A DNA stretch of 64,000 bases. It comes from Escherichia phage vB_EcoM_ESCO10. Shown one piece after another: positions 11,149 to 63,084 of this stretch. The first letter of the stretch is position 1; every line of letters starts with the position of its first letter. The notes below the pieces were generated by a model, which did not search any database, was not told the DNA's origin, and saw only the letters and a program-made list of their open reading frames with translations. A program made the translations under genes and the position numbers. The stretch is taken from sequence record OM386655.1, one strand, 5' to 3'.

Positions 11149-11435
11149 TAGAACCTCATCTGAAATCCGTGTGATTTAACATTACCACCATAGACATCAG
11201 AGGTATTGACTTCACGTGCAGCGCTAGGGTCAATGTTAATATCATGGTTGAGCTTAGTGATTGCTAGGGTATCACGACCATTGACGGTACGGAATTCTAC
11301 AGGGCATACCACATCAGCATAGGCCTTAATAGATTCACGAGTAGGCTGTTTGTCAGCAGGAACACCTTTACCGGCTTTAGAGAAAACAACTTCACAGAAA
11401 TTTTTACGAGTATCGAAATAAGTGGTCATAAACAT
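11148..11435 (-). CDS. hypothetical protein (95 aa)
   Basis: Track ORF; RBS GAGGA 6 nt upstream; UUCG hairpin just upstream of the RBS. Confidence 0.5.
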   Translation of the reverse strand: MFMTTYFDTRKNFCEVVFSKAGKGVPADKQPTRESIKAYADVVCPVEFRTVNGRDTLAITKLNHDINIDPSAAREVNTSDVYGGNVKSHGFQMRF

Positions 11436-11449
11436 AATATTTTCCTCAA

Positions 11450-11465
11450 GGAGGCCGAAGCCTCC
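11450..11465 (-). promoter_or_regulatory. UUCG-tetraloop hairpin GGAGGC-uucg-GCCUCC directly 5' of the RBS
   Basis: Perfect 6-bp stem; the same 21-mer aggaggccgaagcctccattta recurs at 49376. Confidence 0.45.
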
Positions 11466-11473
11466 ATTTAAGA

Positions 11474-11839
11474 TTAGATATCAAACTCGTTAAGAACTAC
11501 ATCAAAGATTGCTTCAAGATGTTCAGGTTTAGCTCGGTTACTCAGAATATGACGAATCCAAGTTTTAACTAAGAGTTTACGATTATCACCGTTCCAACAA
11601 GGATGAGTGCCTAAATCGCGTTCACGGAAATCATCATCTAGAGCGATTTTAAAGTTGGAACCTTCCTTAGTTATTGAAAGAGTGATACCGTTTTCAAATC
11701 GCATATAAACGTAGTTAGGAGTCATGCACTGCTCGATTTCACATACTGAACCGTTTTCATGTTTCCACAGGCAAATAACTTCAGAAGAACCAGCGATACC
11801 GTTAGAAACATATTTACGTTCGAAGTTGATGTAGTTCAT
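11474..11839 (-). CDS. hypothetical protein (121 aa)
   Basis: Track ORF; RBS AGGA upstream; promoter-like element with inverted repeat at 11873..11913. Confidence 0.5.
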   Translation of the reverse strand: MNYINFERKYVSNGIAGSSEVICLWKHENGSVCEIEQCMTPNYVYMRFENGITLSITKEGSNFKIALDDDFRERDLGTHPCWNGDNRKLLVKTWIRHILSNRAKPEHLEAIFDVVLNEFDI

Positions 11840-11872
11840 TTTATTATCCTTTGGTTTGATTTCGTATTATTT

Positions 11873-11913
11873 GGTACAGGTCTATAATAACACAACCTGT
11901 ACCAAAGTAAAAC
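11873..11913 (-). promoter_or_regulatory. early-type promoter (TTTTAC-N16-TATTAT) with -10 inside a 9-bp inverted repeat
   Basis: GGTACAGGT ... ACCTGTACC flanks the -10 element; upstream of ORF 11474..11839. Confidence 0.35.
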
Positions 11914-11915
11914 AT

Positions 11916-12248
11916 TTATTTCACAACATTCCAATTTTTCATATCAAGTTTACCAACTTTTTTCATCTGAGCAATCAGACGTTCGGCACGCTCACGAGCA
12001 GTAACATAATAGAATTCACCGATTTTGTTTTCTTCAATACGACCTGTAATTACAGTTTTCAGTTCATAAATCCAACCTGTAAAGAAGTTGTGAAGCTCGA
12101 TAGTAAAGGTGAAATCAGTACCCATACCTTCAGTGGTTTCAACTTCAATAATATCACCTTCAACCGCTGTCAGGACCCACATGGTTTCTTGATATTCACC
12201 GTTGAAACATTTAGCTTTAACAGATGCATTCAGGTTTACAGTTTTCAT
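11916..12248 (-). CDS. hypothetical protein (110 aa)
   Basis: Track ORF; RBS GGAG upstream; early promoter at 12290..12318. Confidence 0.5.
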   Translation of the reverse strand: MKTVNLNASVKAKCFNGEYQETMWVLTAVEGDIIEVETTEGMGTDFTFTIELHNFFTGWIYELKTVITGRIEENKIGEFYYVTARERAERLIAQMKKVGKLDMKNWNVVK

Positions 12249-12289
12249 TTTATTCTCCAGTTTGTTTTCGTATTTGTTGGTACAAGTCT

Positions 12290-12318
12290 ATAGTATCATG
12301 CCTACTGGAGAAGTAAAC
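12290..12318 (-). promoter_or_regulatory. early promoter GTTTAC-N17-TACTAT
   Basis: Consensus match on minus strand upstream of ORF 11916..12248. Confidence 0.5.
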
Positions 12319-12369
12319 ACTTTTTTAAAGATACAGAAACAAAAATGGGACTCCGAAGAGTCCCATAAC

Positions 12370-12531
12370 TTATGCCCGAGGCTTACCAAAACGAGAAGCA
12401 TCGTCGCGGATAACAGCACGAGCCCGACGCATAATCTTCTCAACTGTCTGATTGATACGTGAGTTAGACGCACGCTTGTAACCAGCGCGTTTAGAGGTTC
12501 CGTCAACTACTTTAACTTCTTTCTTAGCCAT
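12370..12531 (-). CDS. small basic protein (53 aa), not in ORF track
   Basis: ATG..TAA ORF MAKKEVKVVDGTSKRAGYKRASNSRINQTVEKIMRRARAVIRDDASRFGKPRA; more protein-like than the overlapping TTG-initiated track ORF 12288..12506. Confidence 0.35.
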   Translation of the reverse strand: MAKKEVKVVDGTSKRAGYKRASNSRINQTVEKIMRRARAVIRDDASRFGKPRA

Positions 12532-12826
12532 TATAAAATCTCTTTAAATGAAAATGCAGGACTTATTGGCATTGCCTGCGCAAGCCCTCGAAGGGAACAT
12601 AGGTTTTGGATATTTAACGACAGGATAACCATAAACCTCGTCATCATACCAACCACGACTTAGACAGATAACCTTTTTCTGACGCGTGATAGTACAAAAT
12701 ACATTCAAGAGGTACACCGTAAAACTGTCGGGGTCTTAAAACTATAATGATTCGCAAATCATTAATAAGACAGTTCGACGGCTCCTCGATTTTCTAGCCG
12801 CACTAAGGTAGCGAATCACCTAAAAC

Positions 12827-16624: not shown

Positions 16625-17824
<1,200 letters not shown>

Positions 17825-41328: not shown

Positions 41329-41982
41329 ATGGAACCAAAAGTAGGATTTTCATTAACAGACCTACTTTTTGGACTTCTTGATAGAATTTTTAAAGATACT
41401 ACTTCCGGGAAAGTAGTTTTTTCCCGGGTCCTAGTCGTAATATTATTGTTCTTTATGACATTGATTTGGTATAAAGGCGAGTATATTCTAAACTTTTACA
41501 AAGAGACAACTTATGCCTCTTATACTGAAATGATTAGACAAGACCAGGACAATAGATTTAAAATTGCGGCTATCGAGCAGCTCCGAATAGTGCATTCTTC
41601 TTCAGGCGCAGACTTCACAGCAATATATTCTTTTAGGCCGACCAACATGAATTATTTTGTGGATATGGTAGCTTATGAGGGTAAATTACCAGAAACGGTA
41701 GACGCAAAAAATACGGGAGGGTTTCCGATTGACAAAACGTCAGTAGAGTATATGGCGGGAGTTAACGGGAACTATTTTGAATCATCTACTGAATCAGTGT
41801 TTCTCCCTACAAAAGAGAAAACTTATTTCACTTATATGTTTTCGTGCCCGTTTTTTAATTTGGATAACATCTATGCCGGTTCGATATCATTATACTGGTA
41901 TGACATCAAACCGGATTTAGGATTTCCTAGACTTTCGTCTATGTGTGGTCAGGCCGGGAGGACATTAGGTCGAACTCGTTAA
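41329..41982 (+). CDS. t: holin T
   Basis: 217 aa; similarity to recalled T4 holin (..DLLFG.LDR.FKD...GKV..SRV.VVILLF.M...WY ... YSCP.FNLDNIYAG); single N-terminal TM segment. Confidence 0.85.
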   Translation: MEPKVGFSLTDLLFGLLDRIFKDTTSGKVVFSRVLVVILLFFMTLIWYKGEYILNFYKETTYASYTEMIRQDQDNRFKIAAIEQLRIVHSSSGADFTAIYSFRPTNMNYFVDMVAYEGKLPETVDAKNTGGFPIDKTSVEYMAGVNGNYFESSTESVFLPTKEKTYFTYMFSCPFFNLDNIYAGSISLYWYDIKPDLGFPRLSSMCGQAGRTLGRTR

Positions 41983-42254
41983 AAATTGGAGGTATACATC
42001 ATTAGATAACGGTGTATATCTTCATACCCTTCATTAAATTGCTCAATAAGAGTATCACGTTCATCTTCAGTTAAAGACTTAAAGAGTTTATTAAAAGATA
42101 GACCATTAAGTTCCTTTCCTTGTTCATTACGAATACCTAGCTCGTTCAAAAAGGCAATAAACTCATCACGACGTTGCATGATGTCTTCACAATCCGTTTT
42201 AATTAAAATAGAAACAATAGTAGCAATTTCAGAAACGATTTCAATTTTAGTCAT
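41979..42254 (-). CDS. asiA: anti-sigma70 factor AsiA
   Basis: 91 aa; similarity to recalled T4 AsiA (..IVSEIATIVSILIK...FIAFLNE ... EQFNEGYE..HRYLMMYT); converges on t. Confidence 0.8.
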   Translation of the reverse strand: MTKIEIVSEIATIVSILIKTDCEDIMQRRDEFIAFLNELGIRNEQGKELNGLSFNKLFKSLTEDERDTLIEQFNEGYEDIHRYLMMYTSNF

Positions 42255-43843: not shown

Positions 43844-44476
43844 TTAAATTGCATTAGTTACGGTTTTGATAACTTCAGATGATACGTTTTGGAAGTCAAT
43901 ATAAGTATTCTTACCACCAGTCTTAATCTTAACATCAAGGTTCAAGGAAGTAAACACTTGTTTTTCTTTATCAGACATATTATAACCGAAGATGCGCATC
44001 ATTCCATCACGACGAACTTCGATTTGACGAATACCTGCAGTACGTTTTGCGAATCGAACTTCAAGATTACTACGGTTTTCAGCGATTTCACGAATCTCAA
44101 TACGTTCTTCTAACAAAGCTTTGACTTCATCAGCCAGAGTAATCATTTCTGGAGTAACACCACGTGAACTACGTGTTTTACGTTTTTCCAGCATCTCTGG
44201 AGCATTTTCAGAAGCGAACAAATCGGCAGCTTTTTGAACTAGGTCCATTGCTTCACCTGTAGCCACTAAACCGTCACCAGATTTTTCGATAAAACCTTTC
44301 TTAATCAATACACCAATGTTAGAGTTAACTACCGCGGCACTAAATTGCTCACTCAGGGCTTCACGGACTTCGCCTGAAGTGATGAAGTTGTGCTTGATGA
44401 TATGTACTAAGATCGAAGCAGTTTTTTCATTCAGGACGTCTTCAGAAGCTTTGATGATATAAGTAATTTTAGACAT
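43844..44476 (-). CDS. motA: middle-transcription activator MotA
   Basis: Internal Met MSKITYIIKASEDVLNEKTA.. matches recalled T4 MotA (211 aa); RBS GGAG; the track N-terminal 32 residues are promoter read-through. Confidence 0.85.
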   Translation of the reverse strand: MSKITYIIKASEDVLNEKTASILVHIIKHNFITSGEVREALSEQFSAAVVNSNIGVLIKKGFIEKSGDGLVATGEAMDLVQKAADLFASENAPEMLEKRKTRSSRGVTPEMITLADEVKALLEERIEIREIAENRSNLEVRFAKRTAGIRQIEVRRDGMMRIFGYNMSDKEKQVFTSLNLDVKIKTGGKNTYIDFQNVSSEVIKTVTNAI

Positions 44477-44510
44477 TTTAATCTCCGATAACCATTTATT
44501 TGATAGGTCT

Positions 44511-44539
44511 ATAGTATCATGTTTAAAGCATAAGTAAAC
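44511..44539 (-). promoter_or_regulatory. early promoter GTTTAC-N17-TACTAT for motA with an embedded MotA box (TGCTTTA) in the spacer
   Basis: minus strand GTTTACttaTGCTTTAaacatgaTACTAT. Confidence 0.5.
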
Positions 44540-44562
44540 ACTTTTTTGCACTAAACCCAAAA

Positions 44563-44580
44563 AGGAACCCAAAGGTTCCT
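44563..44580 (-). terminator. intrinsic terminator AGGAACC-uuug-GGUUCCU plus U-run
   Basis: Perfect 7-bp stem followed on minus strand by TTTTTGGGTTT; directly after the stop of small ORF 44580..44684. Confidence 0.55.
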
Positions 44581-60960: not shown

Positions 60961-61704
60961 TTAACCTCTAATCAATGAGAAAATTGAAGCATTCAATGGA
61001 AGACCTTTTTTCAACTTCAATTTGTCAATAAAAGAAAGGTGTTCTAAACGCTCCAGACCTTGAATAATTTTATCATACATATCGTAACGCGTTTCTGCTT
61101 CAGACAATTTAAACTTGGCACGCCAATCAGGCCCACCAATTAAAGATTTAAGCCCTTTTTCCATTATACCAATCGAAGCGTTAGAACCATGGATACGAGC
61201 TTTAACTGCGATAACAGAAGGAGTTTTATCGGTAGCTCCTGATTTAATAAGTTCCTTAAGACGATTTTCACGTTTCTTAAGACCTTTTTGGGTAGCTTTG
61301 ATATTTTTAATGATTTTACGAATTTTATAATAATTATCAGGAGTAACTTTAAAACTATTTGGCATTTTAGAACCGCCTGAAATACGACCTGCTAAACGGG
61401 TCTGAGCACGTTTCAATTCATCAAGAGATAAATCAGCCCGTAAGCCGTTATACTTAACTTTAACCGGGATTACATTACCCTCGACATATCCTAGGCCGTT
61501 ATTGAATCGTTCGAATGATACTTTATCCTGGGTTGAGTCCTCATCAAATCTCTCGCCGGAATAGGCACAGAATTCCTGTCTCAAAAGATTAGCGATATAC
61601 TTGCTAGTCAGATTGAAATCCTTACCTCGGCGCTTAGCAGAAGTTTTAGTGTGCTCACGGCGTTTGTAAACTTTTAACGCAAACTCTTCTTTTGATAAGT
61701 TCAT
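60961..61704 (-). CDS. hypothetical protein (247 aa); Srd-like by position
   Basis: Track ORF between the Mod genes and dda where T4 has srd; basic, Lys/Arg-rich. Confidence 0.45.
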   Translation of the reverse strand: MNLSKEEFALKVYKRREHTKTSAKRRGKDFNLTSKYIANLLRQEFCAYSGERFDEDSTQDKVSFERFNNGLGYVEGNVIPVKVKYNGLRADLSLDELKRAQTRLAGRISGGSKMPNSFKVTPDNYYKIRKIIKNIKATQKGLKKRENRLKELIKSGATDKTPSVIAVKARIHGSNASIGIMEKGLKSLIGGPDWRAKFKLSEAETRYDMYDKIIQGLERLEHLSFIDKLKLKKGLPLNASIFSLIRG

Positions 61705-61744
61705 GATATTTTTCTCATCTTACGGACGATTAGCTAATAGGTCT

Positions 61745-61773
61745 ATAGTATCACGTTACTCTATAAAGTAAAT
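61745..61773 (-). promoter_or_regulatory. early promoter ATTTAC-N17-TACTAT
   Basis: Upstream of ORF 60961..61704. Confidence 0.45.
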
Positions 61774-61780
61774 ACTTTTT

Positions 61781-61805
61781 TGCTTTAAATTTTCAATGGT
61801 ATAAT
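61781..61805 (+). promoter_or_regulatory. plus-strand MotA-box middle-promoter consensus (TGCTTTA-N12-TATAAT), antisense to the Mod gene
   Basis: Exact MotA box and exact TATAAT at canonical spacing, but on the strand opposite to all neighbouring genes; no plus-strand ORF downstream. Confidence 0.3.
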
Positions 61806-61842
61806 GAATCAAGGACTTTGCCTTTCAATTAAACCGGGTAGT

Positions 61843-62457
61843 TCAGTAAGAAAGAACGGAAAGATTCCAGATGGTGTAATTATTCCATTTAGGATTTCTC
61901 TCAATAGAGTCTACGCGCAGCGTAGTTCCCGCAGGGAACATCATCTCATCTTCATCATTTATTAATTGCAAGTTTGCTACACGGGTAGATTCAGGAAATG
62001 CGCCTGGGAACTCTTCAGGGGGCGCAGCACATAACATTTTAAAGATTTCTTCCTGATAATTGTACACAAATGGTGCATCATTAATACAAAAGATGTTAAA
62101 TGTTCCATAGAAGTTATAAGATGCAAAATTCCTTGCCACGTTGAAGTCTTTAGAGAAGCTCATCACGCGGTCGAATTCAATTACCGCACCTACACACATT
62201 GTGGACTCTAGATACTTCATAGTCTTTTTAGATATGCCGCGATAGAGCTTATCGGGCACTACAGAAGACAGGTTCTTACGAATAATTTTGTTCAGAGTTT
62301 CCTGGATACAATCCGGTTTATTTTCCATGCACTGCCAGAGTGTGCTCTGTTCTAAATCAGAATACACCTCATCAATTTCTATCTGAGTATTCTCACGGAA
62401 ATCATCGCATTTGACATTGTTGATAAATTCTGCTAATTTATGGCTTGGGTATAACAT
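61843..62457 (-). CDS. Mod-type ADP-ribosyltransferase (ModA-like by position, 204 aa)
   Basis: R-S-E ART motifs (LYRGIS ... SFSKD ... DEDEMMF); paralogous to the upstream gene; T4 ModA is 200 aa. Confidence 0.6.
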   Translation of the reverse strand: MLYPSHKLAEFINNVKCDDFRENTQIEIDEVYSDLEQSTLWQCMENKPDCIQETLNKIIRKNLSSVVPDKLYRGISKKTMKYLESTMCVGAVIEFDRVMSFSKDFNVARNFASYNFYGTFNIFCINDAPFVYNYQEEIFKMLCAAPPEEFPGAFPESTRVANLQLINDEDEMMFPAGTTLRVDSIERNPKWNNYTIWNLSVLSY

Positions 62458-62482: not shown

Positions 62483-62512
62483 ATAGTAACATAAGCTTCC
62501 TTGCTTGTAAAC
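62483..62512 (-). promoter_or_regulatory. early promoter GTTTAC-N18-TACTAT
   Basis: Upstream of ORF 61843..62457; -35 overlaps upstream gene stop. Confidence 0.45.
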
Positions 62513-63084
62513 TAAAAATCTAACATTTTTAAATGGATTGTTTTGTATTCTATTTCAAGTGGGTCTCTTTTGATAGTTTCTATTTCAACAATCTCGAATC
62601 GTGATAGGCTAGAGACCATGAACTCACATTCAGTTTCGACCATATCATAGAGGTCCACACGAGTTTCGTTGATTCCATTGTCTTCTACGTTCCCTGCAAG
62701 AACCAAGTCAATAGCATGGTTGTAGTAGTCAAAAATGAATGGCGCGTTCCTGAGACTTAAAATGGTCTTGGTTCCATATTCCCAAGCGCCTGCGAACTGA
62801 CGAGCTTGCGAGTATTGTGTACTAAAAGAAGTAACACGACCAGGAGACCATTGGCACCCTACTGTAAGAAATCTTAACTGTCTGAGCTCTTCTGGGGTAA
62901 TCCCACGATACAACTCTACAGGAACAGCAGAAGTCATATGCTTACGAACCAGCTTGTCTAGGTCATAATGGAAATTAGGGTCTTCTTTAGAATTCAGACA
63001 TTTCTCTAAAAGGGCTTGTTCAGGTTTTGAGAATTTAGAATTGATTCGGTCTTGATAAAGGCACATTTCTTGTTCGATGTTCAT
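62512..63084 (-). CDS. Mod-type ADP-ribosyltransferase (ModB-like by position, 190 aa)
   Basis: R-S-E ART motifs (LYRGIT ... SFSTQ ... ECEFMV); SD GGAGG upstream. Confidence 0.6.
   Translation of the reverse strand: MNIEQEMCLYQDRINSKFSKPEQALLEKCLNSKEDPNFHYDLDKLVRKHMTSAVPVELYRGITPEELRQLRFLTVGCQWSPGRVTSFSTQYSQARQFAGAWEYGTKTILSLRNAPFIFDYYNHAIDLVLAGNVEDNGINETRVDLYDMVETECEFMVSSLSRFEIVEIETIKRDPLEIEYKTIHLKMLDF

Follow-up and report, generated by a model that had tools for sequence, protein, structure and literature searches.

Between the srd and modA genes of Escherichia phage vB_EcoM_ESCO10 (OM386655.1), a sequence with the form of a T4 middle promoter lies on the strand opposite to the genes and points back into modA. 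This raises the question of whether the sequence is a promoter at all and, if it is, what a middle promoter aimed at the 3' end of an early gene would do. The window, that is the whole stretch of 64,000 nt that was analysed, belongs to a Dhakavirus, a JS98/VR5-like T4-type phage. Over 2 kb it shares 91% identity with JS98, and its srd/modA intergenic region is 98% identical to that of vB_EcoM-VR5. The minus strand carries all of the local genes, in the order dda, dda.1, srd, modA, modB and an mrh-like gene. The Mod proteins have different substrates, RNA polymerase for ModA and translation factors for ModB. Inside the srd/modA intergenic region, positions 61778-61806 of the plus strand read tttTGCTTTA-aattttcaatgg-TATAAT-g. 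The features concerned are as follows.

61778..61787, plus strand: MotA box tttTGCTTTA, with its core TGCTTTA at 61781-61787, an A/T-rich 5' flank and its centre at about -30 from the predicted start.
61788..61799, plus strand: 12-nt spacer aattttcaatgg, which in relatives is variable in sequence and always 12-13 nt in length.
61800..61805, plus strand: sigma-70 -10 hexamer TATAAT, with a conserved G next to it at 61806.
61811..61813, plus strand: predicted transcription start, placed by promoter geometry 6-8 nt past the -10.
61812..62457, plus strand: predicted non-coding antisense transcript across modA, which may extend into modB.
60961..61704, minus strand: srd (PHROG 1400, E 1e-89).
61745..61773, minus strand: early (sigma-70) promoter of srd, with the -35 ATTTAC/TTTACT at 61773-61767, the extended -10 TGaTACTAT with its hexamer at 61750-61745, and 16-nt spacing.
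61843..62457, minus strand: modA, RNA polymerase alpha ADP-ribosyltransferase and presumed target (PHROG 832 'RNA polymerase ADP-ribosylase', E 3e-44).
62512..63084, minus strand: modB, the paralogue that lies upstream of modA in their shared early transcription unit and may be a further target if the antisense RNA runs on.
63136-63109, minus strand: early promoter of modB, TTTACA-16-TATAAT, from a sigma-70 consensus scan.
43844..44572, minus strand: motA (Pfam MotA_activ, E 5e-39, and MotCF, E 1e-12; annotated as MotA in relatives).
41979..42254, minus strand: asiA, the co-activator required for sigma appropriation (Pfam AsiA, E 2e-22).

The T4 middle-promoter consensus, as given in PMC2988021 and PMC1524935, is (a/t)(a/t)(a/t)TGCTT(t/c)a, 11-13 bp and TAtaAT. 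The window element has all of these parts, with a MotA box, a near-perfect -10 and 12-nt spacing. No plus-strand promoter was found at the element by the sigma-70 consensus scan, the sequence at -35 being TTTGCT with no -35 hexamer. Both MotA and AsiA, the machinery that reads middle promoters, are encoded in the window according to the Pfam matches; the real start of motA is probably the ATG at 44476. In having its box at about -30, a spacer of 11-13 bp, an excellent -10 and an encoded MotA and AsiA, the element is like the MotA/AsiA middle promoters of T4 such as PuvsX and PrIIB2. The difference is in what lies downstream. Known T4 middle promoters serve downstream genes or, at oriF and oriG, a replication primer, whereas the window element is directed at the 3' end of an early gene carried by the other strand, with no ORF for it to express. 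The modA stop codon is 38 nt from the antisense -10, and the predicted start at about 61812 is 31 nt outside that stop, reading into modA.

The sequence-only reading had placed TGCTTTA - 12 nt - TATAAT at 61781-61805 of the plus strand, and these coordinates were reproduced. It had also described a canonical MotA-type element in antisense orientation, between two minus-strand genes, pointing at the modA 3' end and lacking an ORF to express, and this anatomy is fully upheld. Inspection of the ORFs likewise bore out that there is no usable plus-strand ORF downstream. A 53-aa plus-strand ORF at 61804-61965 was considered as the gene served by the promoter and rejected; its ATG overlaps the -10, so that it would start upstream of the predicted transcription start, and its frame varies from 9 to 53 codons in relatives. 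A minus-strand sigma-70 promoter overlapping the site (TTGAAA-16-CATTAT, 61828-61801) was also rejected, being a weak match whose -35 is not kept in T4.

The exact pattern TGCTTTA-N12-TATAAT has two matches in the 64-kb window, the element itself and one at 30498-30474 on the minus strand, in the gene-sense direction. In 100 shuffles that preserved dinucleotides there was no match at all, and for the looser TGCTT-N14-TATAAT the shuffle mean was 0.08. Base composition alone gives an expectation per strand of 0.005 matches for a 12-nt spacer and 0.015 for spacers of 11-13 nt. A chance figure of about 0.1 had been proposed previously; the odds are indeed low, and against the computed values that figure is conservative. 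Relaxed MotA-type patterns strongly favour the gene-sense minus strand of the window, at 12 vs 2 and 7 vs 1, and the element is the only good plus-strand match to them. A local chance match is ruled out by the shuffles together with the conservation of the element in relatives.

In T4 (AF158101, 11866-11890) the sequence TGCTTTAAA-N8-GGTATAATGAATC is identical to that in the window, while the flanking intergenic DNA is only about 72% identical. Comparison of the mod-srd junctions was extended to 12 further genera. The antisense arrangement is present in nine genera of the Tevenvirinae: Tequatro-, Dhaka-, Gapriver-, Mosig-, Karam-, Jiaoda-, Winkler-, Gelderland- and Kanagawavirus. RB69, a Mosigvirus, also has the element, the Mosigvirus spacer being 13 nt, and the Acinetobacter phage Acj61 has a degenerate version of it. 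In this comparison of genera the element was absent from the Krischvirus and Muldoonvirus junctions.

A search of IMG/VR with an alignment of Srd gave 51 loci, which were scanned with an element pattern that allowed nGCTnnn and TAnAnT. The element is present in 41 of these, and despite the permissive pattern every one of the 41 has a T/CGCTT box and a TATAAT with G as the next base. In the orthologues the spacer measures 12-13 nt and its sequence drifts, even inside one genus, while the boxes stay fixed. Within Dhakavirus the 8-nt core of the spacer, from TGCTTTAAA to the GG/AG preceding TATAAT, is TTTTCAAT, TTTTCGAC or TTTTCAAC. Srd itself is just 30-50% identical between the compared lineages, and the intergenic DNA is otherwise rearranged or unalignable. 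Invariant boxes at a fixed spacing around a free spacer are a promoter signature and not what an RNA structure or a coding remnant would leave. The comparative evidence strongly supports the reading of this sequence as a promoter.

The conserved sequence could instead be a signal in the RNA or DNA of the sense strand, acting in processing, stability or translation from the modA 3' UTR or the srd leader. Conservation does reach about 10 nt past the -10 (CCTTGAWWC in the sense direction), which ordinary middle promoters do not require, and in some genera the element falls within the srd leader. Against this, conservation falls into two blocks that coincide exactly with a MotA box and a perfect TATAAT, 12-13 nt apart, with a free spacer in which no hairpin or covarying pairs were found, and Rfam gave no match to the element on either strand. 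In addition, where the element and the srd promoter are back-to-back the element lies upstream of that promoter, so that a sense copy would be present in read-through RNA only. The RB49-like group, reported to lack MotA (PMC1524935), keeps both genes without the element. A sense-strand signal is therefore considered improbable.

Immediately past the -10, at 61806-61816 and in the orthologues, the initial transcribed sequence G(A/G)(A/T)T(T)C(A/T)(A/G)(A)GG is kept across genera, better than the promoter spacer is. Promoter function offers no obvious explanation for the conservation of these 10 or so nucleotides.

The element is tied to the mod gene. Of the 51 loci, 46 have a gene for a mod-like ADP-ribosyltransferase ahead of srd, and the element is found in 41 of these 46, with the antisense -10 positioned 4-47 nt past the mod stop in 39 cases; the remaining two distances are frame-walking artefacts. 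All five loci without mod beside srd, where a gp56-like gene is found instead, are without the element. Its relation to the early promoter of srd, on the other hand, is variable, with 23 loci back-to-back, 15 face-to-face and three without an early-type promoter match. In the window the arrangement is back-to-back; the srd early promoter, whose orthologues in T4, by alignment and a scan, are the -35/-10 signals given in record X98695, is 9 bp beyond the MotA box, and the two start sites are about 74 bp apart. The face-to-face loci are those of Karam-, Winkler- and Gelderlandvirus and their relatives, in which the -10 hexamers are 14-18 bp apart, and Jiaodavirus, in which this distance is 45 bp. 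A face-to-face arrangement makes the element part of the srd leader. An ORF of 62-63 aa has been inserted in three back-to-back loci, and it places the element 204-207 nt from the srd promoter and still 29 nt from the mod stop. The element therefore stays with the mod stop codon, oriented into mod, rather than with the srd promoter.

The inserted ORF was found in L059, L060 and L077 (IMG/VR, ~1227-1418), which represent one lineage, and it lies between the antisense and srd promoters. Its ribosome-binding site comes directly after the complement of the MotA box.

These arrangements bear on whether the site acts through occupancy of the DNA alone. A complex of MotA, AsiA and polymerase could be a roadblock or competitor that blocks modB-modA read-through into srd-dda, occludes the srd early promoter, or both. 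In the 15 face-to-face loci, with their -10 hexamers 14-18 bp apart, simultaneous binding of both polymerases would be impossible. The back-to-back type puts the MotA box at about -44 relative to the start of srd transcription, a position at which early promoters make UP-like contacts. The lack of a conserved RNA feature in the Rfam and folding analyses also fits with an effect at the level of DNA. However, the relation to the srd promoter varies through back-to-back, face-to-face, 45 bp in Jiaodavirus and 204-207 bp with the ORF, and it is the orientation to mod and the closeness to its stop that are conserved, neither of which is explained by occupancy. A pure roadblock needs neither a perfect -10 nor a conserved start region. 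This explanation is unlikely, if attractive for the face-to-face genera. The simpler proposal that the element is a UP-element or other upstream part of the srd early promoter is ruled out because 15 loci have the element on the downstream side of that promoter and three have it at a distance of 204-207 nt.

It is probable, judging from the comparison of these genomes, that the element is a genuine MotA/AsiA-dependent (sigma-appropriation) middle promoter, maintained by selection just downstream of modA, which fires back towards that gene and curtails expression of modA and modB. The distribution of MotA is largely in keeping with a middle promoter. In three Krischvirus (RB49-like) loci mod and srd are kept with only the early promoter, and the element is missing; RB49 is reported to be without motA and without middle promoters (PMC1524935). 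Counts of tblastn records for Escherichia phages, at 601 with Srd and 549 with MotA, agree with a link to MotA. Acinetobacter phages, from which the element is mostly absent, are frequent among the Srd tblastn matches and not among the MotA matches. The correlation between the element and MotA is imperfect, the exception being the Muldoon-like loci. Two of these keep mod and srd, separated by a 33-nt gap, without the element, and these phages probably have MotA; by record counts, 16 Serratia phage records are matched by both Srd and MotA.

One trace of the site was found in the earlier literature. In the HMM scan of Nolan et al. 2006 (PMC1524935, Additional file 4), RB69 has an entry 'Pm:12081' on the plus strand with the remark '1 bp ins' and a score of 7.9, which falls between srd (11249-11995) and modA (12149-12751). 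This is the orthologous element, with its 13-nt spacer. The entry is an HMM line in a supplementary table, and that line does not note the antisense orientation, the conservation or the link to modA; nor is Pm:12081 discussed in those portions of the PMC1524935 text that were matched by term search. The GenBank records of T4, JS98, VR5, RB69 and DalCa have no annotation on the antisense strand at the site. A literature search on T4 antisense transcription and start-site mapping returned no report of it, and for no phage did it turn up a transcript, a start site or MotA dependence at this position, an earlier mention being possible in Miller 2003, Mosig 1998, Tiemann 1999/2004, Stoskiene 2007 or Brister 2008.

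The T4 ortholog bears on a further possibility, that the match is inherited and functionless, being inactive in vivo through its context or through modified cytosines. Some good matches to the middle-promoter consensus are said by Stoskiene et al. in 2007 to yield no transcript. Table 1 of Hinton 2010 (PMC2988021) has about 58 experimentally identified T4 middle promoters and nothing near 11.89 kb, the nearest being Pdda.1 (11138) and P56/69 (16813), although T4 has been searched for MotA boxes. The same review describes candidates that look good but have GATT boxes and show no activity on T4 DNA. The site studied here, however, has the canonical GCTT and not GATT, and the neutral persistence of at least 13 exact positions would be very unlikely while the spacer between them drifts. 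A silent match therefore has only a slim chance of being correct, about the same as a sense-strand signal.

No discrete RNA was recognised in the predicted product of the promoter. A conserved intrinsic terminator was not found on the antisense strand in the window, T4 or RB69. Terminator-like hairpins do occur about 400-500 nt from the predicted start, at non-orthologous positions, and RB69 has none. The two that were observed are weak and lie inside modA on the antisense strand, at 62302-62316 of the window (plus strand) and at 1793-1829 of the T4 locus L005 (plus strand). The end of such an untranslated RNA would probably be set by Rho or by collision. There was no Rfam match at the element or in the antisense region on either strand, and no unusual folding was found over +1..+60/100/160 in 13 representatives, where the MFE z-scores were about 0. 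Neither result points to a structured small RNA.

A folding signal is present further inside modA. It covers 45 nt that follow the codons for the catalytic ExE motif, at a distance of about 100-140 nt from the antisense start, and these fold more stably than shuffles with synonymous codons in 8 of 11 element-bearing representatives, the fraction of shuffles at or below the observed energy being 0.004-0.048 in those eight. The signal is absent in T4 and in the Winkler-, Gelderlandvirus and Krischvirus representatives. In the window this part of the modA 3' coding region, at about 61917-61945 (plus strand), has the adjacent hairpins CTACGC-GCA-GCGTAG and TTCCC-GCA-GGGAA. One double-synonymous compensatory change distinguishes Dhaka- from Mosigvirus, in which the first of these reads CTACAC..GTGTAG. 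These hairpins could aid kissing between sense and antisense RNA or could serve the sense mRNA, and they are treated as unexplained.

The sequence of events that this arrangement suggests would begin with the accumulation of MotA and AsiA at about 1-3 min post infection. RNA polymerase would then start near 61812 on the plus strand and make an RNA that is not translated and is complementary to the modA 3' end and probably to more of modA-modB. Head-on collision with early sense transcription, the formation of a sense-antisense duplex, or both, would cut the synthesis of toxic ADP-ribosyltransferase, with pairing of the two RNAs followed by degradation or a translational block. Synthesis of ModA is reportedly very toxic to E. 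coli, and ModA modification of the polymerase alpha subunit disfavours UP-dependent early promoters (Hinton 2010, PMC2988021). As ModA itself helps to shift polymerase from early promoters, firing of the antisense promoter would act as negative feedback on ModA. Deletion of modA in T4 is reported to leave the shut-off of early transcription unchanged (Hinton 2010, PMC2988021), and the benefit of fine control of modA is therefore unclear. The mechanism of early-gene shut-off is still described as unresolved in the same review, and this after decades in which T4 transcription has been catalogued. Firing in vivo, dependence on MotA and shut-off of Mod at the early-to-middle transition are inferred, and the regulatory consequence is considered plausible. 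A broader proposal is that all MotA-encoding T-even-type phages have in common a stage-specific cis-antisense circuit, in which the middle machinery, helped in its takeover by the ADP-ribosylation of RNA polymerase alpha by ModA, fires the antisense promoter into modA and turns off the toxic mod genes. This is advanced tentatively, as something that may well not extend so far.

Promoters that fire back on an early regulatory gene have a counterpart in phage lambda. The OOP RNA of lambda is a cis-antisense RNA to the 3' end of cII, short and discrete, with its own intrinsic terminator and a host-type promoter. The likeness is in a promoter just past an early regulatory gene that reads back to lower its expression, which in the present case is a prediction. 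Unlike OOP, the window element has no conserved terminator, its promoter is predicted to be activator-dependent, and there is no sequence relationship between the two. Dependence on an activator would tie the antisense promoter to the developmental stage. Antisense RNA has a precedent in T4 itself at a different locus, in the antisense transcription of gene 32 (Belin et al. 1987, as cited in PMC2988021 and PMC3014915).

Middle promoters without a gene are used in T4 at the replication origins oriF and oriG, where PuvsY and P34i are MotA-dependent and make an RNA with a non-coding job (PMC2988021, PMC3016281). By analogy the element might be an origin-type promoter in which an R-loop primes leading-strand synthesis, perhaps as part of the T4 oriA region. 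The origin promoters require a downstream DNA-unwinding element and coincide with mapped origins, whereas downstream of the window element G+C is average and oriA is several kb off. Over +1..+60/100/200 the G+C is 0.40/0.37/0.42, against a window mean of 0.39, which as a crude proxy for unwinding indicates no such element; these values for the 60-200 bp downstream of the antisense start (0.37-0.42) are at the 27th-48th percentile. In the review oriA is drawn near soc, where the listed MotA promoter, P56/69 at 16813, is some 5 kb away from the T4 element at 11.89 kb. Nor would an origin be expected to keep so strictly to the mod stop and to be lost wherever mod is absent. A replication origin was rejected on the lack of an AT-rich unwinding region and the placing of oriA elsewhere in the review, and as an explanation for the element it is very improbable, more so than any of the others discussed.

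A circuit shared by all MotA-encoding T-even-type phages, if real, would be without an earlier example as a conserved antisense regulator in the T4 early-to-middle switch, and would have gone unnoticed in the lytic phage that has been studied most. A conserved middle promoter without a gene, aimed into modA, would provide a concrete and testable shut-off mechanism for at least one early unit. For T4 specialists the interest would be in a standard middle promoter put to an unusual antisense use that is conserved. The intergenic position of the site allows clean point mutations, and testing in T4 would be cheap. Comparative genomics is still able to reveal regulatory elements in T4, and pipelines that retain only those promoters upstream of ORFs on the same strand overlook antisense promoters of this kind.

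The genes on either side of the element differ in their affinities. The window Srd is 98% identical to that of VR5 (L037) and 86-88% identical to those of the JS98-group loci (L038-L042), while for ModA the mosaic affinity is the opposite, with 78% identity to VR5 and 98-99% identity to the JS98 group. A recombination junction is therefore located within or adjoining the srd-modA intergenic region.

Srd has no match in Pfam. Its N-terminal part, residues ~7-112, matches not only the Srd family but also the PHROG families annotated as HNH endonuclease, endonuclease and endonuclease VII (phrog_3322, 3118 and 1035; E 7e-17 to 3e-6). Just 5' of the srd ribosome-binding site there is a 13-nt motif, CGTCCGTAAGA(T/C)G, at 61717-61729 (plus strand catcttacggacg; minus strand CGTCCGTAAGATG). 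It can form a 4-bp hairpin with a CGUAA loop and is invariant in the srd leaders of T4 and the Dhaka-, Gapriver- and Mosigviruses. In Jiaodavirus JD18 this motif is located within the antisense promoter, in its spacer. The motif may serve srd as a signal for translation or for RNA stability.
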